From Malacoraja senta (taxonomy: Eukaryota): a DNA stretch of 64,000 bases. The stretch's first letter is position 1. Each line of letters starts with the position of its first letter. Below the pieces are notes generated by a model that was given only the letters and a program-made list of their open reading frames with translations, did no database searches and was not told where the DNA came from. The stretch lies in contig CM075988.1 of assembly GCA_038087875.1 (NCBI GenBank), positions 3,038,001-3,102,000 on the forward strand. Reading direction: 5' to 3'. Of this stretch, positions 23,745 to 60,222 are shown one piece after another. The translations under genes and the position numbers were made by a program.

Positions 23745-25010
23745 ATTGATTTTATTGATTATATTAGCCAAGTATGATAACATAACAAGTATGTAAATCA
23801 TATGAGGAATTTGATTTTGCCATACAGTCATACCAAAAATGCAACAAAACACGCAACCATATAAACATTTAACATAAACATCCATCACAGAGGCGCCTCC
23901 ACATTCCCCACTGTGATGGAAGGCAATGAAGTCTTATCTTCTTTCCTCCTTTTTCTCCCGCGGCCGGACAGTTGAACCATCCGCAGTCGGGGCAAATGAC
24001 GCTCCTGCAGACGGCGATCAAAGCTCCTGTGTTGGGGCGATTGAAGCTCCCGCGATCGGGGCGGTCGAGGCTCCTGCGGTTGGAGCTCCCGAAGCTGGTC
24101 CCTAACCAGGGACCATAAGCTCCGCGAAGTTAAAGTCCGCGGGCTCCCGCAGTTGGAGCTTCCGAGATTGATCCCTGGCAAAGGGACCGCCAGCTCCAAG
24201 ATGTTAAATCCGCAGGCTTCCGTGGTTGGAGCTCACAAAGTCGATCCCCAGCAAGAGGCCGCCAACTCCACGATGTGAGGAAGAACATTATAGCCATAGA
24301 GGGAGTGCAGAGAAGGTTCACCAGACTGATTCCTGGGATGTCAGGACTTTCATATGAAGAAAGACTGGATAGACTTGTCTTATACTCGCTAGAATTTAGG
24401 AGATTGAGAGGGGATCTTATAGAAACGTACAAAATTCTTATGGGGTTGGACAGGCTAGATGCAGGAAGATTGTTCCCGATGTTGGGGAAGTCCAGGACAA
24501 GGGGTCACAGCTTAAGGATAAGGGGGAAATCCTTTAAGACCGAGATGAGGAAAAACTTTTTCACACAGAGAGTGGTGAATCTCTGGAACTCTCTGCCACA
24601 GAGGGTAGTTGAGGCCAGTTCATTGGCTATATTTAAGAGGGAGTTAGATGTGGCCCTTGTGGCTAAGGGGATCAGGGGTATGGAGAGAAGGCAGGTACGG
24701 GATACTGAGTTGGATGATCAGCCATGATCATATTGAATGGCGGTGCAGGCTCGAAGGGCCGAATGGCCTACTCCTGCACCTATTTTCTATGTATCTATGT
24801 TAGTCCACAGTGCGGACGGAGATACAATACGGATAAAGTCGCATCTCCGTCGAGGAAAGAGATTAAAACAGTTTACCCCACCTCCCCCCCCCCCCCAATT
24901 TATACAAAGCTAAAGAAACACTAAAACATACATTTAACAACAGACTAAAAACAACAAAGAAGGAAAAAGACGAGACAGACCGTTGGCGAGGCATCCATTG
25001 TTCGGCACCA
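23745..25010 (-). mobile_element. Composite VNTR-containing non-autonomous retroposon (copy A), interrupted by CR1
   Basis: Shares head, hairpins and GC-rich repeats with 37819-38590 and 59335-60222. Confidence 0.65.
24277..24798 (+). mobile_element. Young CR1 3' fragment
   Basis: IIAIEGVQRRFTRLIPGMSGLSYEERL... Nearly identical to 44522-45054. Confidence 0.9.
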
Positions 25011-25237
25011 CCTGGGAGAAGTTAAAGATGTCCATGAATGTTCTTCCAGCTGGCCCGTGCTGCTGGGTCCTTTATCTGAGACAGTTGCTTTTTGCAACAA
25101 TGGCGTGGGTACAGGCGTTCCCAGACTGTCAGGACGGTGATGTCAGTCCATCGACCGTCTGTTCAAAGCGAGCATTCACCTGGTAGGATAGGCTTGTCTT
25201 GCTGCCAGTGATGCTGCCCAACCTCATTTTGTAGTTA

Positions 25238-25450
25238 CGATACACACAAAATGGTGGAGAAACTCAGCAGGTCAGGCAGCATCTCCGGAGAAAAAGGATC
25301 GGTGACGTTTCGGGTCAGGAACCTTCTCTCTCAACTCGAAACATCACCTATCCTTTTTTCAGCAGAGGTGCTGACTGACCTGGTGTGTTACTCCAGTACT
25401 TTGTGTCTGTCTTTGAAATATACCAGCATCTGCAGTTCTTTGTTTCTACT
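25238..25450. mobile_element. Inverted pair of Penelope-derived terminal repeats
   Basis: Two opposite-orientation copies of the GAAACGTCACC...GATGCTGCC...TACTCCAG repeat. Confidence 0.65.
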
Positions 25451-28678: not shown

Positions 28679-29099
28679 TGAGAGGCAGAGATAAGGTGAG
28701 GCAGGATAGAGGAGTCCAGAATAAGAGGGTGTAAGTTTAAGTTGAGGGAGGAATGTATTTAAATGAGACCCTTGTGCAAAGAGAAGGGGGTGCCTTTAGG
28801 GAATAAGCTGCTGGAAGAAGCTGTAAAAGTGGGTACAGTGGTCACATAGGAAGGAAAGGTTTAGTGGGATATGGGCCTAACACAGGCAAAATGGACTAGC
28901 TCGGTTATAAGACTTGGTTGCCATGGATAGGTTGGGTCAAAAGTCTACTTGAGTGCAGAGAAGATTTACAAGGATGGTTTTTTTCCTGGTCCCCTTATTC
29001 CAATCAGTCTGAAAATGGTCCTGACCTGAAATGTCACTTTCAATTTAGTTATGTTTATTGTCACATGTACTAAGGTACAGTGAAAACCTATCCATGTGT

Positions 29100-29318: not shown

Positions 29319-29324
29319 ATTACA

Positions 29325-30496: not shown

Positions 30497-32388
30497 CAGG
30501 CACATGCCATCAGGGTAGGTAAGGTAGGCACTGCCTACCCAGACTAAAATTATAAAATGGTAATTATTAAATATAAATAGTAAAGGCAAAGGGAGAATTA
30601 TGCCTACCTAAGAGATCGATATGTGCAGCTCACGTGTAGTTGACACAGCTTCAAGCCTTCAATGACAAGGGGAGCTGAAGGCAGCTGAAATTCTTTGTTT
30701 GCACCGTGGACTGCGTACTGCACATGCGCAGCAGCCTACTGCGCATGCGCATCATAAGTTTCTTGGCAGGTTTTTCAAACATAGATCTTAAGAGTATCTT
30801 GAGAAACCATTATCTTAAGAGTATCTTGAGAAACAAAGAGAGAAGAATGGAGTTTGTGTACAAATAATGTGGTAAGTAAATTTCTTTGAGCAAAATGTTT
30901 TTAAATATCGTATTTCCCGGCAATGAAGATGCTATTTTTTACCCAAAAATAAGACACGGAAATTTACCTGCGTCTTGGAGGCCGAAGGTTAGGTTCTTAG
31001 CCAAGAAAGATAGACTTGGCTATCCCTCAGTACAGCAACATCAAGAACGTGTGGGTAGTCTTGCCAGGGGTAAAGTTGCGGGGAGGGCAGGAGCGTTGAG
31101 AAGGAGGGGGTCGGCGATCATGCCAGAAACTCACTCACGCTCCGGGCACGGAGCCACCGCATTGTGGCCGGGGAGGGAAGTAGCTCGGGTGGCTGCAAGT
31201 GGCTGCCGGGACTGGACAGCGGCTTCGTGGCAGCCGCTTTCTGCAAATCCTTAAATTCCGACTGCCGCCGGGGAGCAGGACATGGCCTCACTTGCTGCGC
31301 TGGGTGACACTGCATGGTATTCACTGCCCGGTGGAGCTTTCTCCTGTGTCAGCGCGAGGAAACTCAATTGGTCCCTTGATCGTGCTGACACGGGAGTAAG
31401 CTCCACCGCCCGCTGTCCTGTTATCCATCGCCTGCTGACCCGCACTTGTCTGGTCTCCATCATTGTCCGGTCTCCATCACTGTCGCTGTCAATTGAAAGA
31501 CACGGACCGGGCAGTGAATGCCATGCAGTGTCATCCAGCACAACAAGTGAGGCCATGTTCTGCTCCCGGCGGCAGTCGGAATTTAGGGATTTGCGGGAAG
31601 CAGCTGACATGAGCGAGGCCGGTGAGCGGCAGGTGAGAGATGTTCAGACGGAGAGCAATGCCAGAGGTGAACGAGGCCGGCGAGAGATGTTCAGATGGAG
31701 AGCACTGCCAGAGGTGAGGGGCCGGCAGAAGGTGCTTAGGTGGCAGCCAGTTCCGCTGTCCGGTCCTGGCGGCCGCTCGCATCCACCCGAGCTACTTCCC
31801 TCCCCGGCCACAATGCGGTGCCTCCGTACCCGGAGCGCCGCGGCAGCGGTGAGTGAGTGAGTTACTGGCATGATCCCCGACCCCCACCTTCACAACGCTC
31901 CTGCCCTTCCCGCAACTTTACCCCTGGCCAGACTCCCCACACGCTGTGAAAGTAACTCTCCCCCCAATTGGTCCCTTGAACTAGTATTGTCATTCAATAA
32001 GATCACAACTGATTCAACTTGTCCCGGTGTGCTCCCGTTTTTCCCACCATCTCTCCGCCTGCTGTCACCCTCCACCCCCCACCCATTCAGTAATTCAGAA
32101 TGAAGGAGATTTGGAAGCCTTGGGCAAATTGAATTGTTACTTTCTTTATTTTTATTTTTTATCTTTTTGAGCGTGAGAAATTCTATGTCCCGCCAGCCTT
32201 CTTTCAAAATTTAGCAACTCAAAATGGGGGTGCGTCTTCGTCGCAGGTGCATCTTCATTGCCGGGAAATACGGTACTTTATTAAGAGATATGGCTTTTGA
32301 AGACTTTATAAAAGTCGACCGACAGATAACAATTTTTTAAATGCCGACTGACTGCCTACCATGAGTAATTACTCACTGCATGTGCATG
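30497..32388. mobile_element. Non-autonomous hAT-like element with 8-bp TSD
   Basis: TSD ATAAACAG at 30489-30496 and 32389-32396. TIRs CAGGCACATGC / GCATGTGCATG. Subterminal TGCCTACC motifs. Confidence 0.8.
30908..32273. mobile_element. Nested non-autonomous Tc1/mariner-superfamily (CCGTA-type TIR) element
   Basis: TIRs (T/C)CGTATTTCCCGGCAATGAAGATGC and its reverse complement, flanked by TA. Internal long inverted repeats. Confidence 0.8.
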
Positions 32389-32535: not shown

Positions 32536-32579
<44 letters not shown>

Positions 32580-32593
32580 CATACACACACACA
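32437..32593. repeat. Compound (TG)/(TA)/(TC)/(CA) microsatellite
   Basis: Read directly from the sequence; abuts the Tc1 left end. Confidence 0.97.
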
Positions 32594-34205
32594 CAGTACC
32601 CTCTATAATGTTTGGGACAAAGACCCATCATTAATTTATTTGCCTCTGCACTCCACAATTTGATATTTGTAATAGAAAAAATCACATGTGGTCAAAGGCC
32701 ATTTTTATATATTTTGATTTCATCATGTAGAAATTACAGCAGTGTTTATATGTCGTCCCCCCATTTCAGGGCAACATAATGTTTGGGACATGGCTTTCCA
32801 TGTGTTTGTAATTGCTCAGGTGTGTAATACTTGCCTCCTTAATGCAGGTACAAGAGAGCTCTCAGCACCGAGTCTTTCCTCCAGTCCTTCCATCACCTTT
32901 GGAAACTTTTTTTATTGCTGTTTATCAACATGAGGACCAAAGTTGTGCCAATGAAAGAAGCCATTATGAGACTGAGAAACAAGAATAAAACTGTTGGAGA
33001 CATCATCCAAACCTTAGGCTCACCAAAATCAACTGTTTCGAACATCATTAAGAAGAAAGAGAGCACTGGTGAGCTTACTATTCGCAAAGAGACTGGCAGG
33101 CCAAGGAAGACCTCCACAGCTGATGATAGAAGAATTCTATCTATAATGAAGAAAAATCCCCGAACACCTGTCTGACAGGTCAGAAACCCTCTTCAGAAAT
33201 CAGGTGTGGATTTGTCAATAACCACTGTCCGCAGAAGACTTCATGAACAGAAATACAAAGGCTACCACTGCTCAGATGCAAAGATGCAAACCACTGCTCA
33301 GCTGCAAAAATAGGATGGCCGGGTTACAGTTTGCCAACTAGTAATTAAAAGAGCAACCACAGTTTTGGAAAAAGGCCTTGTGGACAGATGAGATGAAGAT
33401 TAACTTATATCAGAGTGATGGCAAGAGCAAAGTATGGAGGAGACAAGGAACTGCCCAAGATCCAAAGCATACCACCTCATCTGTGAAACACACTGGTGAG
33501 GTTGTTATGGCCTGGGCATGTATGGCTGCTGAATGTACTGGCTCACTTATCTTCATTGATGATACAACTGCTGATGGTAGTAGCATAATGAATTCTGAAG
33601 TGTATAGACACATTCTATCTGCTCAAGTTCAAACAAATGCCTAAAAACTCATTGGCCAGCGGTTCATTCTACAGCAAGACAATGATCCTAAACATACTGC
33701 TGAAACAACAAAGGAGTTTTGCAAAACTAAAAAATTGTAAATTCTTGAGTGGCCAAGTCAATCACTCGATCTGAACCCAATTGAGCATGCCTTTTATATG
33801 CTGAAGAGAAAACTGAAGGGGCCTACCCCCCAAAGCAAGCATAGGCTAAAGCTGCCTGCAATACAGTCCTGGCAGAGCATCACCAGAGAAGACACCCAGC
33901 AATTGGTGATGTCCATGAATCGCAGACATGAAGCAGTCATTGCATGCAAAGGATATGCAACAAAATACTAAACATGACTACTTTCATTTACATTACATTG
34001 CTGTGTCCCAAACCTTATGGTGTGCTGAAATGGGGGGGGGGGGGAACTGTATAAACACAGCTGTAATTTCTACATGGTGAAACCAAAATGTATAAAAATG
34101 GCCTTTGTTAAAATCTGACAATGTGCACTTTAACCACATGTAATTTTATTCTATTACAAATCTTAAATTGTTGAGTCTTTGTCCCAAACATTATGGAGGG
34201 CACTG
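32594..34205 (+). mobile_element. Tc1 transposon copy 1 (defective)
   Basis: TIRs CAGTACCCTCTATAATGTTTGGGACAAAGAC / ...GGAGGGCACTG. Transposase remnants GRPRKT, WTDE, QQDNDPKH, DLNPIEH. Stops and frameshifts. Confidence 0.93.
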
Positions 34206-34732
34206 TATATATATATATATATAAAGACACACACACACACACAGACGCAAACAAACAATAATAGTGCAAAAAGACAAAACCAATGAAAGGGTCTCGACCC
34301 AAAACGTCACCCGTTCCGTTGCTACCTGTCCCGCTGAGTTACTCCAGCACTTTGCATCTAACCCCAAGTCTATGTTGTTCAGAGCTTATTTGGAGCTTGT
34401 GTTTAATAGCCTGACGGCTATAGGGAGTCCATGGGTGAATACAAACAATAATGTCCAAAAAATATGCTGGAAGTTGTCTGGAAACATGCATTTTCCAGCA
34501 GGAGTTGCAAGAGTGGGTAAAGCGGTCAGTCAGGAGATCCGAGAATTTAGAAAAGTGCAGCACAGGAACAGTCCTTTCAGCCCACAATGTCGATGCTGAA
34601 CATGATGCAAAGTTAAAGTAATCGCCTCTGCCTGCATGTGATCAATAAACCTTCAATCCCTGCATATGATGAACTATTTCTCCTTCCTAGCCCAGAGGCT
34701 CAGAGATCAGTGGTTGCACATAGTCCATACAT

Positions 34733-37134: not shown

Positions 37135-37818
37135 TAACAGGCCCTTCGGCCCACCGAGTCCACATCACCAGCGATCCCGCACATTTTTAACAAAGAGCCA
37201 GGAATTAAAAACGTAAAGCAGTAACTGTGTATTCATTGGAGTATTTTATGTCCTTTATATGAATTAGTTTAAGGGCTAGGTTTATTATTGTCATGTGCAA
37301 TTAGGTAGATTAGTTTATTGTCATGTGTACTGAGGTACAGTGAAAAGCTTTTTGCAGCGTGCTAACCAGTCAGTGGAAAGACTGTACATGATTACCGTCG
37401 AGCAATCCACAGTGTATATATGATGAAGGGAATAACGTTTTGTGCAAGATCAAGTCCAGTAAAGTATAATTAAAGATAGTCCGAGGTAGAGTGAATAGCT
37501 TTGTTTGGCATACTATCCTATCAGATCAGACAATATTATACTTGAATACAATCTAGTCAAACTCAAGTACAATAGGTAGAGCAAAGGAAGATGCAGATTA
37601 CAGAATATAGTTCTCTGCGTTGTAGCGCATCGGTTCCACAAACAAATTCCAATGTGATGCCGACAGTACCCTAGTTCATGGCAAGACCGTTCATATGCCT
37701 GATAACAGAAGGGAAGAAGCTGTTCCTGAGTCTGGTGGTGCATGCTTTCAAGCTTCTGTACCTTTTGCCTAACAGGAGCAGAGAGAAGGAATGACTGGGG
37801 TGGGTCAAATATGATTAC

Positions 37819-38590
37819 GAATCAGAATCAGAATCAGAATCACACTTTATTCGCCAAGTATGTTTTGCAACATACGAGGAACTTTATTGGCCAGGTCAGT
37901 CATACAATTAAATGTAACAGACCACTCAAAAACACATTTTAACATGAACATCCACCACAGTGACTCCTACACATTCCTTACTGTGATGGACGGCAAAATA
38001 AAGTTCAAGTCCTTCCCTTAGTTCTTCCTCGGTCGCGGGCCTCGAGCCCCCGTTGATGGGATGATCTGACTCCCATAGCAAGCGGCGTTCGGGCCCTCCG
38101 TGTCGAGGCGATCAAGCTCCCGCATCGGGGGAATGTCAGCTCCCCCGCGGCGGGCGATCAAACCTCGCGTCGGGGCTGGTCGAACCTTCCGTGTTGGAGA
38201 GGCCGAGTTGGAGCTTCCCGACTCGGCCTAACCCGAAGACTTCGAGCCCTTGGTGTTGGTTCTGCGGTGGGAGCGATCCCAGGCAAGGGATCAGCTCTGA
38301 TGTTAAGTCCACGCCCCGCGGTGGGGCTCACGACAATCTGAGGAGGCTTCCAGCTCCATCGATGGTAGGCCGCAGAGCCCGGCGAATGTGGTCCGAAATT
38401 CAATCACATCTCCTGGAAGGTAAGAACCTGAAAAAAAGGTCTCCCCCGATCCCCTTCCCCCTCCCCCCACATAAAACAAACCGAAGAACATTAAAACAAA
38501 AAAAAACTTTTAACAAACTAAAAAATAACAAAAAGAGTGAAAAGAGGAACAGACTGCCGGCAGGGCAGCCATCGCCCCGGCGTCTCTGGT
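37819..38590 (-). mobile_element. Composite VNTR-containing retroposon (copy B)
   Basis: (GATTCT)n tail, conserved CCATCACAGT..ACTGTGGTGG hairpin, GC-rich repeats, T-rich/G-run head. Confidence 0.65.
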
Positions 38591-39509: not shown

Positions 39510-39790
39510 ACATCTAACCAAGTTCACATTTATCGTCACGTGCACCAATTAAGGTACAGTGATATTTGAGTTACCAAACCGGCCATACAAGTAAAAAAAG
39601 AACGCAATACACAATAATTTTAACATAAACATCCACCACAGCGGAATCAACATTCCTCACTATGATGGAAGGCAATAAAGTTCAGTCATCTTCCTCCTTT
39701 GTTCACCCGTGGTGGTTGGGGCCTTCAACCCTCAGCACTGCCTCTGCCGACGATCCGATGTTAAAACTCTCTCGGGACGGAACGGAAACA
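39510..39790 (-). mobile_element. Composite retroposon, 5'-truncated (copy C)
   Basis: Same hairpin at 39632-39669 but a different 3' tail. Confidence 0.55.
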
Positions 39791-44012: not shown

Positions 44013-44521
44013 CAGTTGTGATGGCGTCCAAAAAATCGGTGAGGAACTCAGGAGAAAACTATTTATACAGATCAGATGTAGAATACATTCTAGGTCTACA
44101 AAAATGGTGGAAGACTGCAGTTCCTTCTTAAAAAAAAAAGAATACCTTCTAGTTCAGTTTAGTTTATTGTAGGTTTACCGAGATACAGCAAAAAGCTTTT
44201 GTTACGTGCTATCCAGTTAGCAGAAAGATAATACATGACAGGGCTCTCGCTTAACTTTTTTCCCCTGTTGCCAGCCGGGCAACCTTGACAGCATTTTAGG
44301 TTGCCAAATGACAGTTTAGGTGGTCATTTAAGATGGCTTGCATGACACGTGCGATAATGTGCTTGGACGAAGTGCGTAGTTACCAGTCGGAATTATACTC
44401 AATGAAGCATTCACATGTTATTTCTGCTTCAAAAAAAGTCACAAACTAAACATATTCACCAATCAAGACATGATATATCCCACAATGACATGCAGCAAAA
44501 TTATAAGTCAGTATCTCAACT

Positions 44522-45054
44522 CCAAATCTGAGGAAGGACATTATAGCCATAGAAGGAGTGCAGAGAAGGTTCACCAGACTGATTCCTGGGATGTCAGGAC
44601 TTTCATATGAAGAAAGACTGGATAGACTTGGCTTATACTCGCTAGAATTTAGGAGATTGAGAGGGGATCTTATAGAAACGTACAAAATTCTTGTGGGGTT
44701 GGACAGGCTAGATGCCGGAAGATTGTTCCCGATGTTGGGGAAGTCCAGGACAAGGGGTCACAGCTTAAGGATAAGGGGGAAATCCTTTAAGACCGAGATG
44801 AGGAAAAACTTTTTCACACAGAGAGTGGTGAATCTCTGGAACTCTCTGCTACAGAGGGTAGTTGAGGCCAGTTCATTGGCTATATTTAAGAGGGAGTTAG
44901 ATGTGGCCCTTGTGGCTAAAGGGATCAGGGGGTATGGAGAGAAGGCAGGTACGGGATACTGAGTTGGATGATCAGCCATGATCATATTGAATGGCGGTGC
45001 AGGCTCGAAGGGCCGAATGGCCTACTCCTGCACCTATTTTCTATGTATCTATGT
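44522..45054 (+). mobile_element. Young CR1 3' fragment nested in the DNA transposon
   Basis: Near-identical to 24277-24798. Confidence 0.9.
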
Positions 45055-46432: not shown

Positions 46433-46863
46433 CGACGTTTCGTGTCGGCGGCTGTCGTGCGGGGCCAAGATACTAGGTGCGGGGTGAGGAAGGGTCGGAG
46501 CGAATGATGGGTCCCGCACAGTGGCAACAGCGGCCGCGAACAGCAGCTCCATCTCCTCCTCCCGCCTTGATAAGGGCCTCTGCTTGTAAACCCGTTAACG
46601 GCGCTTTCAAACAAACTCTCCCGCACTACGAGGCCGGGAGGAGGGAGGGAGGGAGGGAGGGAGGGGGAGGCCTCGGAGTGCGGGTGAGTTTGTTTGAAAG
46701 CGCCGTTAGCGGGTTTACAAGCAGAGGCCCTTATCAGGGCGGGCGGAGGAGGAGGAGATGGACCCGCTGCTGCCGTTGTGCGGGGCCCGTCATTCGCTCC
46801 GACCCTTCCTCATCCCGCATCTAGTATCTTTGCCCCGCACAGCCGCCGCCGACACGAAACGTC
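46433..46863. repeat. Long imperfect inverted repeat (~200-bp arms)
   Basis: GACGTTTCGTGTCGGCGGC... pairs with ...GCCGCCGACACGAAACGTC, with a purine (GGGA)n spacer at about 46636-46668. Confidence 0.9.
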
Positions 46864-47214
46864 ACGTTCCTTTTCTCCAGAGATGCTGCCTGACCCGCGG
46901 AGTTACTCCAGTTTTTTGTGTCTATCTTCGGTACAAACCAGTATCTGGTTGCCAAGCCGGGCAAAATGACTCAGTGTTTAGGTTGCCCGGCGGCGCTTTC
47001 AGTGGTCAGTGGCACCCGGGCAACCGCTAATTTCGAGCCCTGCATGATTACAACTGAGCCATTTACAGTGTATAGATACATGATAAGGGAATAATGTTTA
47101 GTACAAGGTGAAGTCAGCAAAGTCCAATCAAGGATATTGAAGTACTTAAACCACAAAGGAGAATTGTGTATTAAGGGGAAGCTATTTAACAGGTAAGATT
47201 TAGAGAATTATGTT
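46751..47214 (+). repeat. 464-bp direct repeat, copy 1
   Basis: Ungapped match to 53520-53983 (offset 6769) with about 6 substitutions. Confidence 0.95.
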
Positions 47215-47618
47215 TTTTTTAATTTTTTTATTTTTAATTTTTTTATTTATTAGAAGTACATTACATTACAACCACATACATTAGTACTCGTCACTAATGT
47301 CTTCTTACAATTAATGTACTCCATTTGTTTTTTACACTAGTAAAAGGAAAGGATAAGATTGAAAGAAAGAAGAAAGTGAAGGAAAAAGTGAGAGTGTAGA
47401 AAATGTGACAACAAAAAAGAACGAAGACCCTATAAGAACAAAATTAAAAACAAAAGAAAAAGTCTTAAGAAATAGACCCTAGAAAAGAAGGAGAGAGAGA
47501 AAGAGGAAAAAGAGAGAAACAAATATTTTTTATGAGCATTACGCAAATGGGACATACCAACTCTTCAACTATCATCCCCCATTACCTGACCTCAATTTTT
47601 TTAAGGTACCTTTGCACC

Positions 47619-50600
47619 CTATATTTGTAATAATTCTATAAATGCAGACCACGTCAGGTGGAAGTGATCTGGTTTACCTGCCAGGAGGAGGAGTCTTATC
47701 TCTTCTAGGTGTAATGTTTCGAACATATTTGAAATCCACACAGTTGGTGTTGGAGCCTTCTTCCAAAATTTTAGGATTAGCTTTTTTCCAGTTATTAACC
47801 CATAGTCTATTAGTTTCTTTTGAAACACATTGAGTTCTGGACCATCTTCCGTTATTACGAAGATAATCCATTCTGCTTTGGGTATCAGTTTTATTTTAAA
47901 TAATTTTGTAAAGATTTCGAAAATTTCATTCCAAACTTTTTGAATTTTTGAACAGAAAACAAATGGGTGCGCTATAGTAGCTTCTTGGGATTGACATTTA
48001 TCACAAATAGATGATACATTTGGGAAAATGTTATGGATTTTAGTTTTGGAATAATATAATCTATGTAAAATTTTTAATTGTATTAAAGTGTGTCTTACAT
48101 TAATCGAACATTTATACACGTTTAATAAGTGTTCATTCCAACTTTCCTTTGAAATTTTAATAGCTAACTCTTGTTCCCAGTCTCTTCTGATACCCTCCGT
48201 AAATGGTATTTCTACATTTAAGATAATATACAAATATGATATTAAGTTTGATGATTCAGCTTTTATCTGCATTGCCTCATCCAATACATCTGCTGGGTTA
48301 TTATAATGATCTTTTGTATATTTTTTCAAATAGTCGCATATTTGAAAATATTTAAAATATTGATTATTTCCGAGTTTATATTTTATTTGTAATTGTTGAA
48401 ATGAAAGTAATTTTCCAGTTTCATACAAGTCACCGAACGTTTGAATTCCTAGTCTATCCCAATGTGTAAAAGCTTTATCTATAATAGAGGGATTAAACAA
48501 AGGGTTATTAGCTATGGGTAATAAAAGTGATAAATTTCTTAATTTTAAATTTTGTTTTATTTGTTTCCAAATTCGGATTGTGCTATGAATAATTGGGTTC
48601 TTATTATAATTTATATTATTCAGTTTCATTGGAGAGAGGAGGATCGCTCCAATGTTTCCAGAGGAGCAATCCTCTTTCTCCATTACAATCCAGTCCACTT
48701 GCTGGGCGGAGTTATCCATCAGTTGAATCATATTTTTAATATTTACTGACCAATAATAATACATAAAATTAGGTAGTGCTAAACCCCCTAATACTTTAGG
48801 TTTATTCAGGTGAGTTTTTTGTATTCTATGTGATTTATAGTCCCATATAAAATTAGTGATATCTGAGTCGAGTTTAAAAAAAAACTTCTTTGGTAAGTAT
48901 ATAGGAATCGATTGAAATAGGTATAAAATTTGTGGTAGAAAGATCATTTTTATTGCATTTATTCGGCATATTAAAGACATCGGGAGCGTTTTCCAGAATT
49001 TAATTAGTGTGTTTAATTTATTAAGTAGGGGATCAAAATTTGCCTTAAACATACCTTGATATGTTCTAGTAATTTCGATTCCCAAGTATTTAAATTTTTC
49101 TGTAGCTATTTAAAAGGGGAATTTTAAAAGATGTGTTGAATCTTTCGGTTTTATTGACATAATTTCACTTTTATTCCAATTTATTCTATATCCAGAAAAA
49201 GATCCAAAGTCTTCAATTAAATTTAATATATTTGGTATAGTGATTTGAGGTTTTGTAATGTACAGTAATATATCATCCGCGTATAAAGATATTTTATTAT
49301 ATGAATCTTTAGTATTATATCCATGGATATCAGGGTGTATTCTAATTTTTTCTGCTAGCGGTTCAATAATGAGAGCAAACAGCTGTGGTGATAATGAGCA
49401 TCCTTGTCTATTTCCCCTTGATAGTTGGAATTTTGAGGATAATATGTTAATAGTTAATATTCTAGCTGTAGGTTTATTATATAGTAATTTGATCCATAGA
49501 ATAAAATTCTCTCCCAGTTGAAATTTTTGTAATACTTTATCCATATAATTCCCTTCTACTTGGTCAAATAGTTTTTCAGCATCCAGCGAAATAATTGATA
49601 ATTCTTGATCTTCAGATTTGTGTGAGTGCATTATGTTGAGTAAACGTCTCATATTGTTAGATGAGTATCTCTTAGGGATAAACCCCGTCTGATCTGGGTT
49701 TATTAATTTACTAATGTATTTACTTAATCTAGCTAATGTTTTCGCTAATATTTTTTGATCTGTGTTTAACAATGCTATAGCTCTATATGAACCCGGTTCT
49801 TCTAAATCTTTGTCTTTCTTAAGTATCAGTATAATCGTTGATTCCGCTAATGTATCAGGTAGTATTTGTTTTTTAAAAGCATATTGGTACATTTTTTGTA
49901 ATCTTGGTATTATTTTATTATAAAAGCTTTTATAAAATTCATTAGAAAATCCATCAGGACCTGGTGTTTTTCCATTCTTTAGTGAGTTTATTGTATCTTC
50001 TAATTCCTTAATTGAAATTTGTGCACCCAATTCCTCTTGTTCCTTCAACTCTAACTTTGGAAGATTACAATTATCCAAAAACGTTGCGATATTATTGGAA
50101 TCAATTGTCGTTTTAGATGTATACAAATTCTCATAAAATTGCGCAAATCTTTTATTAATATCCTTCGGTGTTGTTAATAATTCCCCTTTATCTGATTTAA
50201 TCTTTGGGATAGTATGTTCCTTTTCTCGTTTTTTTAGCTGGCGAGATAAAAGTTTATGCGGTTTATCCCCAAATTCAAAGTGCTCTTGTTTTGTAATTTG
50301 AAAAAAGTCTTATAAGTTTGGCAGATAATAATTTATTTAATTTAAATTTCAAAATTATTATTTTATTATGTTTATCTATTGATGGATCTTTAGCATTATC
50401 TATATCCATTTGTCTAATAAGTTCTTCTAACTGTCTTTGTTCATTCTTATTCTTTTTATTTTGAAAAGCTTGATATGAAATTATAATACCCCTAATGTAT
50501 GCTTTAAAAGATTCCCATAATACAGTAGACGATATATCTGGAGTATCATTTATTTGAAAAAAGGCATCCATTTGTTCTTTTAAATATATACTCGCTTGTG

Positions 50601-51398
50601 GATCTTTTAGAATTTGAGAATTAAATCTCCAAAACGATTTATTCTTAAACATTCCTTCCAGTTTTAAAAAGAAAGTTAGTGGAGAATGGTCTGAAATCGA
50701 ATTTGTATGGTATGTTGGGTTAAATGTTTGAGGGATTAATTTTGTATCCAGCATGAAGTAATCTATACGTGAGTATGTCTTCTGTACCATTGAATAAAAC
50801 GAGTATTCCCTGCCAGTTGGATTAACAATTCTCCAAACATCTGCTATATTAGTATTGTTTATATAAGTATTGAGAAGTTCCCCGGTTTTCGATTTCATAT
50901 TCCCTCTCTGTTTTTGGCTTGATCTAAGTATGGATCTAAAACACAGTTAAAGTCTCCTCCTATTATAACATTTTGATAGTTAAACTCTGCAATTATGTTG
51001 AAAATTTTATTGAAAAAGTGGGGGTTGTCAAAGTTAGGGGCATATATATTTACCAAGGTAAGTGGAGTATCATGAATTTCTCCATTAACTATTAAGTATC
51101 TCCCTTCTATATCTGTTATGATATTCTTTGCTTTAAATGGTATACCTTTTCTTATAATGATTGACGTGCCTCTAGATTTCGAAGTGAATGAAGAATGGTA
51201 TGTTTGACCTATCCATTTCGCCCTCAACCTAGCTTGATCCTGAGATTTTAAGTGTGTTTCTTGTAAGAAGATAATGTCAGAGTTGTACAGTTTCAACTGA
51301 GCTAGTATCTTACCCCTTTTAATAGGTTCGTTAATACCTCTTATATTCCAGCTACAAAATGAGATTCCTCCTAGGTTCTTTTGTTTAGTATCATGCAT
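47619..51398 (-). pseudogene. L1 ORF2p (EN-RT-Cys), split into four ORFs
   Basis: ORFs 50895-51398, 50275-50898, 49110-50126 and 47619-49085 carry consecutive domains. Confidence 0.9.
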
Positions 51399-52239
51399 TT
51401 TGAATAATTATAGTACCTTTAAATCTTGTGGTGCATCCATATCCCAGGTCTTTGGGTATTGGGGGAACTTTTGAATTTTTGAGTTTTGTTGGTATATCCA
51501 TTTTACGCTTATCACTAAACACAAAACACAAACATGTGAGTTTATGTGATAATAATTTTAAAAAAACTAAAAAAGTGAAAATACAGTGTCTATTATAGTC
51601 GGCACTGTAGCGAGTGTCCCAACTGTAGGTGGGAAAAAACCTTGTTTCGACTTCCATTGTGATGTTAAACAAATAGCTCCGCTCTCTTGGTTGATCATAA
51701 CATATTAAAATATTAAAACGGGGCCTCACATTCAGATATATAATACAATTTTACCCTATATATTTCATTATAACATCATATTTATATCGCAATTTTAGCT
51801 ACTAATTAGTAAACCGATACTTTTGACTTCAATAAGAATCAACTGTTGGTTGAAGGGGTTAACGAGACGTGCCCCTGGACCTAAGCCAGGTGCTCGTTTC
51901 TCATCCCCTCCTCCCACTTATAGATAAGGTTTCAATTTATTAAAAATTCATATTAGTATGTTAGTTCGTTATTTTTTATTTTTATTTTTGTTAGTATTCT
52001 AATCTAACATGAATAACTTATTAAGTTATTAATAGGATAAATTCTTACAATTGGTTTTAATATTATAATCTAATAAACAAGTAAATGCTTCTGGTATATA
52101 CCATTCCCGTCTGTTCAGCTGTTTACTCATTTTGAACAGAAAGTGTCCTTGATTCAACATTCCAAAGATAACAGTCTAGCTATCCCCAGACAAAGCATTG
52201 CTTAGAATGGTTCAGATCTGCCAAACCCCCATTTGATTT

Positions 52240-53342
52240 CTATTTTTCAACGATAGTTTCGGCATATTTGAATGCGTCTTCAGGCTTAACAAATGACTTT
52301 ACAGAACCTTTGAAGGAAATACGCATTTTCGCTGGATAAAAAACTCCATATCTGATCCCTTCTTTCCCTCTTAAAAGATCCTTAACCTTCTCGAATTTGT
52401 TTCTTTTTTGCACAATTTCATACGGGTAGTCCCTGAATATCTTGATAGTGTCATTGTCCAGCCGCAGTTGCACACCGTGTTTGATTTTGCTCATAACATC
52501 TTCCAGTTCTAAAATATCCCGAAATTTCACAATAATATGTCGTGGATGAGTTTTTCCCGCACCAGATCTTTGTTTAAATCTTGGGACACGATGAGCCACT
52601 TCGATTTTCGGTTCTTTGGAAAGATTAAGCAGTTGTTTAAGCAAGCCCATGGCAATCTCACGCACATCCTCCCCCTCGCTCCCTCTGAGACTCCAAGAAT
52701 TCTCAAATTCTGACGTCTAGAGCGAGCTTCCAGGTCCAGGCATTTTTCTGAGACTTTTCCCAGTTGAATCACCATCTGTAGTGAAGTTTGTTCATTTTCT
52801 TGCCTCATTTGCTCATGTTCTTGCCTCATTTTCGCCATGTCTTCAACCACTCGAGCCGTGTTTTTCTCCAATTCCGTAATTGTGCGCATACTTGCAGCTA
52901 CTGTTTCAAGCACAGCCGTGAACCTGTCCGTAGTAGTTTCATCCATCTTGTCCATTCTCTCCGATTGTCCATCTTTCACATCCTCAATTCGTTTATTCAT
53001 AATGTCCAGTGAATCAATCACCTTCTGATTGCCAGCATCCATAGCCTTCTGATTACCAGCATTTAAATCCTTCAACATCTTTTCCATTTTTTCCATCATA
53101 TTTCCCATATTTTCCTTCATATTTTCCATCATAATTTTATTTTCATCCAAAATCTCATCTTTCATATTTTTCACTGATTTCTTCAAGTCATCAAACTCTT
53201 TCTTAGCTCTTGTATCCATTTCTGCAGCCACTTCAGAGACTTCAGAGACTTCAGAGGTAACTTCTCCTTCAGACTTATTCTGGTCTCTCAGCAGCTTTTT
53301 CACTAATCTCTGAGGGCTCTCAGCTGGAGACAGTTTACTCAA
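52240..53342 (-). pseudogene. L1 ORF1p (one frameshift)
   Basis: Overlapping ORFs 52527-53342 and 52240-52665. Confidence 0.85.
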
Positions 53343-53519
53343 TTAAAGGGCTTTAAACCACCGTTTAAAACATCGCGCTTACTGATGACGTCATCCAACC
53401 GGCGACCAGAAGCTCCGGTAAGTTTTTTAAATCCAATCCCGATTTATGGACCCGTTTTACACGATAAATCGTGAAATTTTTCGGGAGAGGAGCTAGGTGC
53501 ACGTCTGTTAGTCCAACAT

Positions 53520-53983
53520 GGAGGAGATGGACCCGCTGCTGCCGTTGTGCGGGACCCGTCATTCGCTCCGACCCTTCCTCATCCCGCATCTAGTATCTTT
53601 GCCCCGCACAGCCGCCGCCGACACGAAACGTCACGTTCCTTTTCTCCAGAGATGCTGCCTGACCCGCGGAGTTACTCCAGTTTTTTGTGTCTATCTTCGG
53701 TACAAACCAGTATCTGGTTGCCAAGCCGGGCAAAATGACTCAGTGTTTAGGTTGCCCGGCGGCGCTTTCAGTGGTCAGTGGCACCCAGGCAACCGCTAAT
53801 TTTGAGCCCTGCATGATTATAACTGAGCCATTTATAGTGTATAGATACATGATAAGGGAATAATGTTTAGTACAAGGTGAAGTCAGCAAAGTCCAATCAA
53901 GGATATTGAAGTACTTAAACCACAAAGGAGAATTGTGTATTAAGGGGAAGCTATTTAACAGGTAAGGTTTAGAGAATTATGTT
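53520..53983 (+). repeat. 464-bp direct repeat, copy 2
   Basis: Matches copy 1; abuts the L1 5' end. Confidence 0.95.
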
Positions 53984-54337
53984 GATAGGATTAAGTGAAT
54001 TATGGCAGAACCTACTGACCGAACAGCGCAGGAAATTCTGTTCTGATCTATGGAGATATTGGTTCCATGTTTAGGAATGCCTCTTTTAAATCCTTCCCCT
54101 GGTTTCAAACTGTAATCTTGCTTCTTCTACTATACCCTCCAGGCATATAATTATTCAATATAAATATGCGCATCTAATTTTGACTAAGCTTGTAAAGATT
54201 TATTTGCTTCACCTTCAGCAGCTAAGCTGTCAAAAGGTGCTAAAATCTGGAATTTCCTCTCTAAATTTTGTACCTCAGGGCATTTTTTTCTGCCAATGTA
54301 ATCTGAAACCAATTTATATGAAGCCTCTGGTTATATA

Positions 54338-55948
54338 CAGAGGCTTCCATAATGTTTGGGACAAAGACCCATCACTTATTTATTTGCCTCTGTACTCCAC
54401 AATTTGAGATTTGTAATAGAAAAAATCACATGTGGTTAAAGTGCACATTGTCAGATTTTATTAAAGGCCATTTTTATACGACATGGTTTCACCATGTAGA
54501 AATTACAGCTGTGTTTATACATGGTACCCCCATTTCAGGGCACCATAATATTTGGGACACATGGCTTCACAGGTCTTTGTAATTGCTCAGGTGTGTTTAA
54601 TGCCTCCTTAATGCAGGTATAAGAGAGCTCTCAGCATCTAGTCTTTCCTCCAGTCTTTCCATCACCTTTGGAAACTTTTATTGCTCTTTATCAACATGAG
54701 GACCAAAGTTGCCAATGAAAGTCAAAGAAGCTATTTTGAGACCGAGAAACAAGAATAAAACTGTTACAGACATCAGCCAAACCTTAGGCTAACCAAAATC
54801 AACAGTTTGGAACATCATTAAGAAGAAAGAGAGCACTAGTGAGCTTACTAATCGCAAAGGGACTGGCAGGCCAAGGAAGACCTCCACTGAAGATGACAGA
54901 GTCTTTCTCTCTATAATAAAGAAAAAATCCCCAAACACGTGTCCAACAGATCAGAAACACTCTTCAGGAGTCAGGTGTGGATTTGTCAATGACCTCATGG
55001 TCAAGACTTCATGAACAGAAATACAGAGGCTACACTGCAAGATGCAAACCACTGGTTAGCCGCAAAAATAGAATGGCCAGGTTACAGTTTGCCAAGAAGT
55101 ACTTAAAGAGCAACCACAGTCCTGGAAAAAGGTCTTGTGGACAGATGAGACGAAGATTAACATCAGAGTGATGGCAAGAGCAAAGTATGGAGGAGAGAAG
55201 GAGCTGCCCAAGATCCAAAGCATACCACCTCATCTGTGAAACACGGTGGTGGGGGTATTATGGCTTGTGCATGTATGGCTGCTGAAGGTACTGGCTCACT
55301 TATCTTCATTGATGATATAACTGCTGATGGTAGTAGAATAATGAATTCTGAAGTGTATAGACCCATCCTATCTGCTCATGTTCAAACATAATGCCTCAAA
55401 ACTCATTAGCTGGCAGCTCATTAAACAGTAAAACAATGATCCCAAACATACTGCTAAAGCAACAAAGCAGTTTTTCAAAGCTTGAGTGGCCAAGTCAATC
55501 ACCCGATCTGAACCCAATTGTGCATGCCATTTATATGCTGATGAGAAAACTGAAGGGGACTAGCCCCCAAAACAAGCATAAGCTAAAGATGGCTGCAATA
55601 CAGGCCTGGCAGAGCATTACCAGAGAAGACACCCAGCAACTGGTGATGTCCATGAATCGCAGACTTCAAGCAGTCATTGCATGCAAAGCATATGCAACAA
55701 ACTACTTTCATTTACATCACATTGCTGTGTCCCAAACATTATGGTGCCCTGAAATGGGGGGACTATGTATAAACACTGCTGTAATTTCTACATGGTGAAA
55801 CCTAAATGTATAAAAATGACCTTTATTAAAATCCGACAATGTGCACTTTAACCACGTGATTTCTTTCTATTATAAATCTCAAATTGTGGAGTACAGAGGC
55901 AAATGAATAAATGACGGGTCTTTGTCCCAAACATTATGGAGTGCACTG
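54338..55948 (+). mobile_element. Tc1 transposon copy 2 (defective)
   Basis: Same TIRs and transposase remnants as 32594-34205. Confidence 0.92.
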
Positions 55949-56097
55949 TCCACTAATACCTACAAGATTTGGTGACAAATTTTGTTAAATAATACTCCTG
56001 TGAAACATCTTGAGGGGTTTTGCTTCGTTTAAAGTGGAATATTGATGGAAGCTGGTTTTGTTGTTGTTTGACAAAGGATCCACTTTGCTCGGTTTTT

Positions 56098-56403: not shown

Positions 56404-56505
56404 TAAATTATTAGATTGTATTGAACAGGGTAAACAAATTTCAATGCAGTTTCTGGTGTAGAGAGAATTCTATCAGATTGTTAACCAGCTGTTTTCCCGC
56501 GGCAG

Positions 56506-57008: not shown

Positions 57009-57319
57009 TAATATTTAGTAATCATTCTAGTTCAGTTTATTGTCACGTGTACCGAGGTACAGTGAAAAGCTTTTGTTAAGTGCTTACCAGTTAGCAGAAA
57101 GACAGTACATGATTACAATTGAGCCATTCACAGTGTGCAGATACAGGATAAGGGAATAGAGATTTAAAAGCGTGGAGCGATTATATGTGTGATTGCAGTT
57201 CCGCTTCTGTGACTAGCACACAAATAGTCGCCTGGGTTGGGTGCCATCTTGGTACCACATTTTCCATTACACATGGCTAACACCAGGACACCAGTTTCAA
57301 ACCATTAGTGAGTGAAGGA

Positions 57320-57582
57320 GGTTTAGAGATATAGCATGGAAACAGGTCCTTCAGCCCACCGAGTCAGCACCGACCAGTGATCACCCCTACACTAGTTCTA
57401 CCCGACACACTAAGAACAATTTACAGAAGCCAATTAATCTACAAACCTGCACGTCTTTGGAATGTGGAGGAAACCGGAGAAGTCACAAGGAGAACGTACA
57501 AACTCCCTACAGACAGCACCGGTAGTCAGGATCGAACCCAGGTCTCTGGCACAATAAGGCAGCAGATCTACCACTGCACCAC
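57320..57582 (-). mobile_element. V-SINE
   Basis: Same family as 5898-6197. Confidence 0.72.
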
Positions 57583-57612
57583 TATAGAGTTAATGTAGAA
57601 ATCATTGATATA

Positions 57613-59105
57613 CAGTACCCTCCATAATGGTTGGGACAAAGACCCATGATTTATTTATTTGCCTCTACTCCACAAATTGAGATTTGTAATAGAAAAAAAT
57701 CACATGTGGTTAAAGTGTACATTGTCAGATATTATTAAAGGCCATTTTTATACATTCTGGCTTCACCATGTAGAAATTACAGCTGCATTTATACATAGTC
57801 CCCCTATTTTAGGGCACCATAATGTTTGGGAGACATGGCTTCACAGGCATTTGTATTTGCTCAGGTATGTTTAATTGCCTCCTTCATGCAGGTCTATGAG
57901 AGCTCTCAGCACCTAGACTTTCCTCCAGTCTTTCCATCACCTTTGGAAACTTTTATTGCATTCATCAACATGAGGACCAAAGTTGTGCCGATGAAAGTCA
58001 AAGAAGCCGTTATGAGACTGAAAAACAAGAATAAAACTGTTCGAGACATCGGCCACACATGCTTACCAAAATCAACTGTTTTGAACATCGTTAAGAAGAA
58101 AGAGAGCACTGGTGAGCTTACTAATCGCAAAGGGATTGGCAGGCCAAGGAAGACCTCCACAGCTGATGACAGAAGAATTCTCTCTATAGTAAAGAAAAAT
58201 GCCCAAACACCTGTCCGACAGATCAGAAACACACTCAAGAGTCAGGTGTGAATTTGTCAATGATCACTGTCCGCAGAAGACCTCATGACAGAAATGCAGA
58301 GGCTATACAGCAAGATGCAAACCTCTGGTTAGCCGCAAAAATAGGATGGCCAGGTTACGGTTTGCCAAGAAATACTTAAGAGAACAACCACAGTTCTGGA
58401 AAAAGGCCTTGTGGACAGTTGAGATGAAGATGAACTTATATCAGAGTGATGGCAAGAGCAAAGTATTGGGGAGAGAAGGAACTGCCCAAGATCCAAAGCA
58501 TACCACCTCATCTGTGAAACATGGTGGTGGGGGAGTTATGGCCTGGGCATGTATGACTGTTAAAGGTACTGGCTCATTTATCTTCATTGAAGATACAATT
58601 GCTGATGGTAGTAGCAATATGAATTCTGAAGTGTATAGACACATCCTATCGGCTCAAGTTCAAATAAATGCCTCAAAACTCCTTGGCTGGCAGTTCATTC
58701 TACAGCAAGACAGTGATCCAAAACATACAGCTCAGGCAACAAAGGAGTTTTTCAAAGCTAAAAAATGGTAAATTCTTGAATGGCCAAGTCAATCACCCGA
58801 TCTGAACCCAATTGAGCATGCCTGAAGATATGCTGAAGAGAAAACTGAAGGGGATTGGCCTCCAAAACAAGCATAAGCTAAAGATGGCTGCAATACAGGC
58901 CTGGCAGAGCATCACCAAAGAAGACACCCAGCAACTGGTTATGTCCATGAATCGCAGACTTCAAGCAGTCATTGCATGCAAAAGATATGCAAAAAAATAC
59001 TAAACCTGACTACTTTCATTTACATGACACAAATCTCAAATTGTGGAGTACAGAGGCAAGTAAATAAATTATGGGTCTTTGTCCCAAACATTATGGAGGG
59101 CACTG
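57613..59105 (+). mobile_element. Tc1 transposon copy 3 (defective, deletion in right TIR)
   Basis: TA-CAGTACCCTCCATAAT... to ...GGAGGGCACTG. Motifs GRPRKT, KHGGGGVMAW, QQDSDPKH, SPDLNPIEH. Confidence 0.92.
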
Positions 59106-59334
59106 CAAGCAAAAAACTAGCCTGTAGTTGAATGCGTGGAAGCAGAAATTGGTTTTAAATCATAAGTTGCAGCTGTAGCAAGGACTGTCACAGCTCATTT
59201 AGAGTTATGACTTTCATGTTACACAGTGGGCGACTATTTGACACAAGTGGTGATAAACTGATCACTTTAGTTTTACATATATTGACAGTGATTGGATCTG
59301 CAGTGTGTGTTTGTATGTACCTGTAGATCTATTT

Positions 59335-60222
59335 CGGAAGTGGCGGCGCGGCACTGGCTGCAGCGGCTCATTCATCGGCAGTCCTGTTTGTTTGTGTTTT
59401 TTGTGTTGTTTATTTCGTTTTGGTTAGTCTAGTTTTTGGTTTTTAGTTTGTGTTTTGGGGGGGTGGGGGGTTGTAACGGGGTTTGCAGTCTCTCCCTGCG
59501 GGGGAATGCGACTTTTTGTCGTATTCCCCTTCTCTGCCTCCGTCTGCGCTGAGGCCTAATGGAGGTGGCGACCTCGAGGCTCCGGAGGCAGAGCCCGTCA
59601 GGACTCGCCCTAAGCTCGCTCCCGTGAGGGTGGTCCGGCTCAGGGCTGGAACAGTGCTCCCGTGAGCGCCCAAGTCGGGGCGGCCCGGCCCGAGGGAGAA
59701 GCGACCCCCAAGTCGGGGCGGCCCGGCCCGGGGAAGGAGCGACGCCCAAGTCGGGGCAGCCCGGCCAGAGGGAGAAGGGACGCCCATGTCGGGGCAGCCC
59801 GGCCGGAGGGAGGTTCGGCGCCCATGTCGGGGCGGCCCAGCCCGAGGCTGAAGACGGCACGGTACTCACGTGAGAGTGGCTGGGACGGTGTTCTGGCGGT
59901 GGTGGCCTGAGTCCGGGGTTCGGCCGCGGGCCAGCGTCTGCGTCTGCAGGACTGGTGGGCGGCAGCTTCGACCACCCCGGGCCGCGGTGTTTGAGCCGCG
60001 GGAAACATCGCCCGGGGAGTATCACCTCAGCGCAGAGGGAGAAGAGGAGGGAAGAGACTGCAGATCTAAGACTTTTGCGTCCATCACAGTGAGGAGATGT
60101 TGGGTGGACTCACTGTGGTGGATGTTAATATGTGTTTATTGTTGTTTTATGTATGACTGTTGCAATTTCGTTCAGACTTCGGTCTGAATGACAATAAAGG
60201 GCTATCTAATCTAATCTATCTA
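59335..60222 (+). mobile_element. Composite VNTR-containing retroposon (copy D)
   Basis: T-rich head, G run, hairpin, ~38-bp GC-rich VNTR (59667-59845), second hairpin 60078-60124, stem-loop plus AATAAA plus (CTAAT)n tail. Confidence 0.7.

Follow-up and report, generated by a model that had tools for sequence, protein, structure and literature searches.

Long interspersed nuclear elements (LINEs) are known to give rise to bipartite derivatives without an open reading frame (ORF), among them RTESINE, WALLSI3 and Bov-A of RTE, RIME and NARTc of Ingi, the Vingi derivatives, and the short internally deleted elements (SIDEs) of R2. Such derivatives have LINE-like 5' and 3' ends, are probably transcribed by RNA polymerase II (Pol II) and mobilized in trans, and descend from parents that lack ORF1. 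The sources listed by Kojima 2018 (PMC5786205) are only RTE, Ingi, Vingi and R2. We identified a family that appears to resemble these elements in each of the above respects but to differ in having a Rex1-type parent, a large repeat-bearing body of non-LINE origin, and tails taken from several lineages. It is represented by four copies (A to D, Table 1) in a 64,000-nucleotide stretch of the Malacoraja senta genome (GenBank assembly GCA_038087875.1, contig CM075988.1, positions 3,038,001 to 3,102,000), hereafter the window. In our interpretation the copies form a single family of non-autonomous retroposons that have no ORF and are carried by Rex1/Babar-type LINEs: a Rex1-framed bipartite derivative that bears a variable number of tandem repeats (VNTR) within a foreign, structured body and whose termini have been exchanged between Rex1 lineages. 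We assign this interpretation a probability of roughly 0.7.

The first ~35 nucleotides and the T-rich tract of the element resemble a Rex1 5' end, and its last ~45–60 nucleotides are a Rex1 3' end. Between them would lie, in place of the ORF, a body of 500–750 nucleotides of non-LINE origin, consisting of a G-quadruplex (G4) motif, hairpin 1, CpG-rich repeats, a purine tract and hairpin 2. An initial annotation, made from the letters alone, had proposed this modular order, and its places, strands, module order and quoted motifs were all recovered in the sequence. The heads of the full-length copies are homologous (A–B z 20.1, A–D z 11.6, B–D z 8.8), as is the region of purine tract and hairpin 2 in all 6 copy pairs (z 14.9–26.4), with 0 of 300 shuffles reaching the score in either case. 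Body similarity between copies is 67–73% in DNA. Hairpin 2 is present at the four sites first noticed, and its full pattern (at most 2 + 2 mismatches) occurs nowhere else in the window; viral and metagenome contigs gave 0 matches to it. The GC-rich repeats had been described as differing from copy to copy. This is true of copy D, whose 38-nucleotide unit is its own, but the middles of A and B are homologous (A–B z 18.5, B–D z 4.8, A–D z 1.2). Tandem Repeats Finder detected arrays in D (38 nucleotides x 4.8) and A (73 nucleotides x 2.3 and 24 nucleotides x 2.8), and none in B or C. Copy A is a member of the family, except that ~525 nucleotides of its original extent (about 24277–24800) are a nested antisense CR1 3' fragment.

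The non-coding character of the family is well supported. The two long antisense ORFs have no Pfam match, that of copy D has no homologue, the reading frames of D match no other copy, and a frame match between B and A only mirrors their DNA similarity; on these comparisons we rejected coding potential. A tRNA scan was empty and the B box is absent from the three full heads, in agreement with the first impression that tRNA A and B boxes are missing. An Rfam scan of the copies revealed no relevant family, 7SL and tRNA included. The suggestion of a self-cleaving 5' region was not borne out, as Rfam returned no ribozyme, and HDV-like and hammerhead descriptors of our own, used without a positive control, matched 0 of 4 copies. 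The CpG observed/expected ratio is 0.84–1.02 in the copies versus 0.53 for the window. We found no published description of the family in the literature searched, which consisted mostly of open papers, with Repbase and Dfam outside the search; it may already be deposited as an unknown or Rex-Babar repeat.

The tails link the family to autonomous LINEs. A peptide (P0001) from the LINE fragment next to copy B has 252 protein matches at E <= 1e-3, and among 10 long matches scanned, RVT_1 is found in 8 and ALKBH8_N in 7. For comparison we used 89 related loci (80 confirmed of 192 in metagenomes, and 9 of 9 in genome contigs). These have a single ORF for an apurinic endonuclease and reverse transcriptase (APE-RT) that starts near the 5' end, and a tail composed of a stem-loop, AATAAA and a microsatellite. 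Rex1 is described as having a single APE-RT ORF, no ORF1, and a conserved 3' untranslated region (UTR) followed by an oligonucleotide tail (PMC13343379, PMC6274825). Rex1 protein scans of viral contigs found none. Four prokaryote genome records (two Aeromonas, a Metamycoplasmataceae metagenome-assembled genome with six contigs, and Microbacterium; loci L081–L089) contain a Rex1-type LINE, most likely through contamination with animal host DNA.

The tail of copy B matches locus L026 at 85% over 67 nucleotides (BLAST, E 1e-11), and without its microsatellite it reaches z >= 4 in 7 of 27 autonomous 3' UTRs, all seven belonging to one 12-row clade of reverse transcriptases. The tail of copy D reaches z >= 4 in 3 of the 27 (L012, L003 and L001), a set disjoint from the seven of copy B, and its BLAST matches are L001, L003 and L014. 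D-type tails are found in a 21-row sister of the 12-row clade, both groups having SH-aLRT support of 99 in a quick tree of 65 of the 89 loci (24 with fewer than 250 aligned residues were left out), and amino-acid identity between the two clades is 46–59%. These lineage calls are based on BLAST and the 3' UTR tests; the label 'AB' assigned to L003, L030, L048, L052 and L063 by a whole-locus regular expression is unbacked. Independent tail-carrying elements are fewer than counted, because several loci are near-duplicates. The tail of copy C matches three Rex1 3' ends within the window (z 9.0–11.6), and the fragment beside copy B that carries this tail type is a candidate for its partner lineage. 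Copies A and C are 72% alike over 157 nucleotides up to the tail and unrelated after the start of the stem-loop (z -1.1), which places the exchange point at the base of the terminal stem-loop. The proposal that the family uses different LINE partners therefore holds to the extent that tails differ by lineage, but all of these lineages belong to one superfamily, Rex1/Babar-type. There is no sign of L2, which had also been named as a partner, in a comparison set that contained no L2 tails.

Other Rex1-type sequences are present in the window. Copy B directly adjoins one fragment and copy C lies within 150 nucleotides of another, and further short 3' UTR or tail fragments are located at 29045–29090, 39945–39995, 44156–44238 and 47043–47136. 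The segment 57022–57255 (minus strand, 230 nucleotides) begins with AAGATGG, ends with a Rex1 3' UTR and C-type tail, and is ORF-less in between. It is possibly a second, short bipartite Rex1 derivative; the 5' model described below gives its start no better than rank 1256 of 127,800.

The body has no counterpart in the Rex1-type LINEs that we compared. From the T tract to the 3' T-rich stretch it shows no convincing BLAST match in the 89 loci (364 kb), and hairpin 2 reaches z >= 4 in 0 of 27 autonomous 3' UTRs. The 23 matches of a loose hairpin-2 expression in the loci are at chance level, and none survives the 3' UTR test. These results bear on the strongest alternative, in which the copies are plain internal deletions of a ray-specific autonomous Rex1 that carries the G4, hairpins and repeats in its own long UTRs, the tails having come to differ by recombination or divergence of the parent. 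Such an origin would fit the Rex1-like character of both ends and a weak alignment of copy B to the 3' UTR of L019 (72% over 134 nucleotides of low complexity), and it gains from the sampled loci including no full-length Rex1 of this organism's lineage. However, most autonomous loci with a recognisable 5' end start their ORF just behind it and leave no room for the body, the Rex1 in the window that shares the tail type of copy C has no hairpin 2 in its 3' UTR, and the bodies remain as similar as stated above while the tail-donor lineages have diverged to 46–59% identity in protein. Internal deletion of one known LINE, the outcome against which the initial annotation had set its own proposal, thus describes the ends, which are LINE-derived, but not the remainder: the family is not made solely of two ends of one LINE, as the body is unmatched in the sampled Rex1 loci and the tails derive from at least two clades. 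We consider this alternative unlikely.

The 5' ends also resemble Rex1. Autonomous loci start with a GGCG block and a second GC block, often followed by a T-rich tract. We trained a two-block position weight matrix on 14 autonomous Rex1 5' ends, all from outside the window. Among 127,800 window positions it puts the B, D and A starts at ranks 1, 2 and 6, which become 5, 2 and 67 when the T term is dropped and 15, 8 and 21 against a GC-rich background. When 15 autonomous starts are compared, the start of D best fits L014 (z 5.7), L061 (z 5.1) and L003 (z 4.7); L003 and L014 carry D-type tails, and L003 is the nearest relative of L061. The start of B fits none of these three (z -0.9 to 1.2) and best fits L009 (z 4.0), L023 (z 3.5) and L026 (z 2.7), of which L023 and L026 belong to the clade of its tail and L009 has another tail type and lies outside that clade. 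This hints that both ends may track the same Rex1 lineage. Runs of five or more T residues occur in the three full heads by position 46–63, which together with the missing B box makes transcription by RNA polymerase III unlikely. T runs, lack of a B box and CpG richness are indirect signs that the family is probably transcribed by Pol II.

The initial annotation had likened the family to primate SVA. SVA-type elements end in a poly(A) tail and insert in the L1 manner with long target site duplications (TSDs). The tail here is instead a stem-loop plus microsatellite, which is the mark of stringent recognition, and copy D shows a 4-nucleotide overlap at its insertion site. As described in PMC4432496, SVA, LAVA, PVA and FVA share with our family a non-coding nature, a GC-rich central VNTR that evolves by lineage, a variable 3' domain and mobilization in trans. 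Our family lacks the Alu-like, SINE-R and hexamer domains of those composites and their poly(A)/L1 route, and where the primate 3' domain varies while the mobilizer remains L1, here the recognition stem-loop itself is swapped. Because head and tail are both of Rex1 type, the frame is that of a bipartite LINE derivative rather than of an assembly of a short interspersed element (SINE) and an endogenous retrovirus (ERV), and the family is SVA-like by analogy only. A true SVA-type composite would be an independent Pol II unit of host or other repeat parts in which only the tail is Rex1 and the 5' likeness reflects convergence on an ETS/YY1-type initiator. The GC-rich VNTR, the G4 motif and the body without a LINE match are all expected of such a composite, and the 5' likeness covers few nucleotides and does not reach significance with a hidden Markov model (HMM). 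Nevertheless, in 3 of 3 full-length copies the opening is a two-block Rex1 pattern (exactly at the terminus in D) with a T-rich tract behind it; the start of D fits the lineage that also supplies its tail; and no SINE-, ERV- or gene-derived module was identified in the copies. We therefore regard this explanation as quite improbable.

Copy D reveals the limits of the mobile unit. Contigs from four public runs, three of them DNA, were compared over 59110–60480; the fourth, presumably RNA, yielded short pieces that speak neither for nor against expression. Two other organisms (runs X3 and X5, 2 of the 3 DNA runs) have a single-copy contig in which 59330 is followed at once by 60223, so that 892 nucleotides (59331–60222) are missing, with four letters (ATTT) that fit either side. 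This empty site sets the limits of D at 59335–60222 and dates its insertion after the split from those lineages. The target site resembles the tail repeat of D itself. Copy C has lost its 5' end and retained its tail, the pattern of target-primed reverse transcription (TPRT), and may have a TSD of 5–7 nucleotides, which is unproven. From the 4-nucleotide overlap, the tail-like target and the truncation of C, we infer that D moves as a unit by TPRT. Summed contig depth in the three DNA runs is 1.6e4–2.0e6 in all 19 bins across D and 31–49 in the left flank; such depth is no copy number, but its height in every bin indicates that each D module is repeated and multi-copy in three organisms. In the organisms with the empty site, contigs span the junctions of head with hairpin 1, of hairpin 1 with the repeats, of purine tract with hairpin 2, and of hairpin 2 with the D-type tail. 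Other copies yield contigs that lack 73–76, 122 or 136–139 nucleotides in or beside the VNTR, which reflects length variation of the repeat domain. A SINE piece adjoins copy D. A further possibility is that a non-autonomous DNA element of HINE/DINE-1 or MITE type, in which subterminal inverted repeats enclose central ones, lies in or beside Rex1 fragments. This is largely refuted: inverted repeats do flank the repeat domain of D, and HINEs as described in PMC4067079 have subterminal inverted repeats, central repeats and a 3' stem-loop, but what the empty site lacks takes in both the Rex1-like start and the microsatellite tail, the inverted arms lie ~150 nucleotides inside the ends rather than 2–4 nucleotides from the 5' and 38–60 nucleotides from the 3' end, TT insertion without target change is not what is seen, and C shows the TPRT pattern. 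Ribozyme-headed, tRNA-SINE and HINE readings were rejected on the absence of a ribozyme, the absence of a tRNA or B box, and the positions of the arms, respectively.

The RNA of the family is predicted to be structured. A canonical G4 motif is present in all three full heads (G4Hunter 2.7–3.0). Hairpin 1 had been proposed as a shared element; those of D (z -5.2) and A (z -3.4) are stable, and that of B (z +1.4) has decayed. In hairpin 2, 40 of 40 cells are paired, two-sided change is seen in 0 of 10 pairs, and 2 pairs vary on one side through G:U; without two-sided change among three to four copies, no covariation is demonstrated. The sense strand folds better than the antisense strand in 7 of 7 hairpins, although this is weak evidence because the strand is rich in G and T. 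In copy D the purine tract, in a pairing that had been overlooked, pairs back to both flanks of hairpin 1 and closes the repeat domain. The outer of these long-range stems has a pair probability of ~1.0 and a duplex energy of -33.5 kcal/mol, which 0 of 1000 shuffles equal. In A and B, whose letters differ, no downstream partner suits this flank better than the purine tract (35 and 26 of 1000 shuffles), and folding the core by itself yields the stem. The fold of the whole of D (-430 versus -378 +/- 5.5 for 15 shuffles) is inflated by repeats and composition and was not used. Roles for the G4, hairpins and long-range stem in recruiting proteins or ribosomes, protecting the RNA, or keeping the tail free of the GC-rich repeats are conjecture.

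Several observations weigh against our interpretation. At the 5' end, the weight matrix was designed after the copies had been seen, and profile HMMs reach no significance across the window (best 5.8 bits, null maxima up to 6.8), so that the evidence there is good but not overwhelming; the start of A fits no single autonomous 5' end (maximum z 2.3). Among the tails, that of A is degenerate and matches B (z 4.9) but 0 of 27 outside 3' UTRs, and that of C reaches z >= 4 in 0 of the 27 outside loci and, as a single copy, may be a one-off chimera. A search for TSDs at copies A and B found none. The foreign origin of the body depends on a set of 89 loci with no full-length Rex1 from this organism's lineage, and the partner LINEs themselves we take to be Rex1 from domain content and the single ORF, our tree having included no reference Rex1. 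Of 278 composition-matched window pairs, 24 do as well as the long-range stem of A and 29 as well as that of B, the flank of A pairs better with the purine tract of D than with its own, and the stem is absent from the full-length fold of B and has p ~0.4 in that of A. A long-range stem closing the repeat domain across the family, strongly in D and weakly in A and B, is nevertheless somewhat favored by the folding models.

On balance we prefer the Rex1-framed bipartite derivative, and its mobilization might proceed as follows. Transcription by Pol II would begin from the Rex1-type 5' end and the CpG-rich interior. The purine tract is then predicted to pair with the flanks of hairpin 1, so that the repeats are looped out and the tail is free. 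As tail homology and the target site suggest, the APE-RT of the matching Rex1 lineage would bind the tail stem-loop in trans and prime reverse transcription at targets that look like the tail microsatellite. The pattern of tails indicates that the terminal stem-loop has been replaced by that of another lineage at least twice, most simply by template switching, and such replacement would allow the body to outlive any one Rex1 partner. Precedents for tail replacement by template switching are reported for SINE module exchange (PMC5499810), R2/R1 hybrid SIDEs (PMC3414825) and double jumps (PMC2104539). In the account of the Drosophila hybrid SIDEs (PMC3414825) the 3' end is likewise replaced and another retrotransposon's machinery moves the element; those elements have a 5' ribozyme, are specific to rDNA and are rare, whereas our family, in which we found no ribozyme, is dispersed and multi-copy and has a VNTR body. 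EhSINE1 of Entamoeba histolytica, as described in PMC2996970, is 500–600 nucleotides long and similar in having no identified small-RNA head, variable internal repeats of 26–27 nucleotides and a LINE tail of ~70 nucleotides, and differs in its one partner, its lack of LINE similarity beyond the tail, and its long TSDs. Module exchange also changes the LINE partner of tRNA and 5S SINEs, the described cases including SlmI, Hpa I and OS-SINE1 with RSg-1, SINE2-5_NV with Rex1-24_NV, CmiSINE/SacSINE1, and the bivalve HCD SINEs (PMC5499810, PMC3747384, PMC11481361). In contrast to these, our family is 750–900 nucleotides long, has early T runs, and shows neither a B box nor any other sign of an internal promoter or of a tRNA, 5S, 7SL or snRNA head.

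We also entertain, more tentatively, a stronger form of this model. The body might be a portable RNA cassette (G4, a multi-way junction that loops out the VNTR, and hairpin 2) that has more than once acquired new, lineage-matched Rex1 termini on both sides through double template switching, and that tracks Rex1 lineages horizontally transferred into rays. The fit of the start of D to its own tail lineage hints at this, and the best match of the start of B, outside its tail clade, is a counter-hint; on present evidence the cassette is doubtful. According to PMC13343379, Rex1 coverage in rays is among the highest, and rays and teleosts share many putative Rex1 transfers, which would be a source of new partners.

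Table 1. Positions of the family copies, their modules and associated LINE fragments in the window
Feature	Positions	Strand	Remarks
Copy D, full length, 888 nt	59335–60222	+	recent insertion; empty orthologous site
D Rex1-type 5' terminal block	59335–59373	+	rank 2/127,800 with and without T term
D T-rich tract	59384–59456	+	first T run (five or longer) at element position 63
D G run, canonical G4 motif	59457–59481	+	G4Hunter 2.7
D outer long-range stem, 5' arm	59484–59496	+	predicted to pair with 60050–60062; 13 nt, 92% complementary
D hairpin 1	59501–59529	+	z -5.2
D inner long-range stem, 5' arm	59538–59554	+	predicted to pair with 60025–60041; 17 nt, 94%, 470 nt apart
D VNTR	59667–59847	+	38-nt unit x 4.8
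D purine tract	60025–60066	+	supplies 3' arms of both long-range stems
D hairpin 2	60080–60122	+	pattern scan and folding
D Rex1-type tail	60161–60222	+	stem-loop 60166–60192, AATAAA, (ATCTA)n-like microsatellite
Copy A, ~745 nt excluding nested CR1	23745–25013	-	
A 5' block	24980–25013	-	
A G4 motif	24876–24896	-	
A long-range arm	24852–24870	-	
A hairpin 1	24815–24851	-	
Young CR1 3' fragment nested antisense in A	24277–24800	+	98% to 44517–45054; ACAT both sides
A repeats (73-nt, 24-nt units)	23965–24276	-	
A purine tract	23932–23959	-	
A hairpin 2	23881–23920	-	
A B-type tail	23767–23809	-	
Copy B, full length, ~770 nt, older	37819–38588	-	homology to other copies
B Rex1-type 5' terminal block	38553–38586	-	rank 1/127,800 with T term, 5 without
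B G4 motif	38443–38468	-	
B long-range 5' arm	~38414–38435	-	
B hairpin 1, decayed	38384–38413	-	
B degenerate GC-rich repeats	within 37951–38371	-	homologous to A
B purine tract	38004–38030	-	
B hairpin 2	37951–37990	-	
B Rex1-type tail, other lineage	37819–37887	-	stem-loop 37853–37881, AATAAA, (TGATTC)n
Rex1-type LINE 3' fragment	37312–37812	-	ORF C-terminus, 3' UTR, C-type tail; directly 3' of B
Copy C, 5'-truncated	39517–39806	-	purine tract, hairpin 2 39632–39669, third tail type, stem-loop 39535–39564

Repeats abound in the animal DNA of the window, among them CR1, L1, Gypsy-like and Tc1-like pieces, and its CR1 and SINE signatures point to a cartilaginous fish. A first exon of a DcpS-like decapping enzyme (~7471–7677, plus strand; E 6e-7 to solved DcpS chains) is directly followed by a G-rich 16/34-nucleotide minisatellite of 1.4 kb (7743–9165) and preceded by a 30-nucleotide repeat (7214–7408) and a gap of 200 N (6848–7047). 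Young CR1 3' fragments at 24277–24800, 44517–45054 and 9503–10026 are 93–98% alike, and two are truncated at nearly the same 5' position. A near-complete L1/Tx1-type element (~47214–53520, minus strand, with ORF1 and ORF2 in pieces) is flanked by a direct duplication of 464 nucleotides that is 98.7% identical (46751–47214 and 53520–53983). This is far too long for an ordinary TSD and represents either an insertion-linked duplication or an assembly artefact. Three copies with long terminal inverted repeats, 85–88% alike (32577–34222, 54333–55949 and 57608–59105), are presumably Tc1/mariner-like. A broken element with reverse transcriptase and recombinase-like parts (17562–21300), accompanied by an inverted perfect repeat of 76 nucleotides (21615–21690/21851–21926), we take to be DIRS-like. 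A broken Gypsy-like pol region is located at 12469–15750. Two GC-rich segments resemble MITEs (miniature inverted-repeat transposable elements): 31048–31943, with inverted repeats of 191 nucleotides at 84% and 108 nucleotides at 89%, and 46434–46713, with a hairpin of ~45 nucleotides.

The proposal of a non-coding, structured, non-autonomous retroposon family whose 3' ends derive from different LINE partners is thus supported, and it is a repeat family made by known mechanisms. Kojima 2018 (PMC5786205) leaves open whether the short list of bipartite sources reflects sampling bias, and a multi-copy case from Rex1, likewise without ORF1, bears on that question. The cassette, if real, would count as a VNTR composite outside the primates, one relying on stringent recognition, and would make Rex1 the fifth LINE clade to give bipartite elements. 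One body on three natural tails forms a swap series for the needs of the Rex1 protein at the 3' (perhaps also the 5') end of its RNA. Published accounts confine VNTR composites to hominoids; with a convergent case from a cartilaginous fish, the roles of VNTR, G4 and long-range folding in trans-mobilization could be compared across unrelated LINE machineries. In practical terms, copies such as D, absent in two related organisms, could serve as presence/absence markers, and the family supplies inserts rich in CpG, which in this window lie downstream of a DcpS-like gene's first exon.

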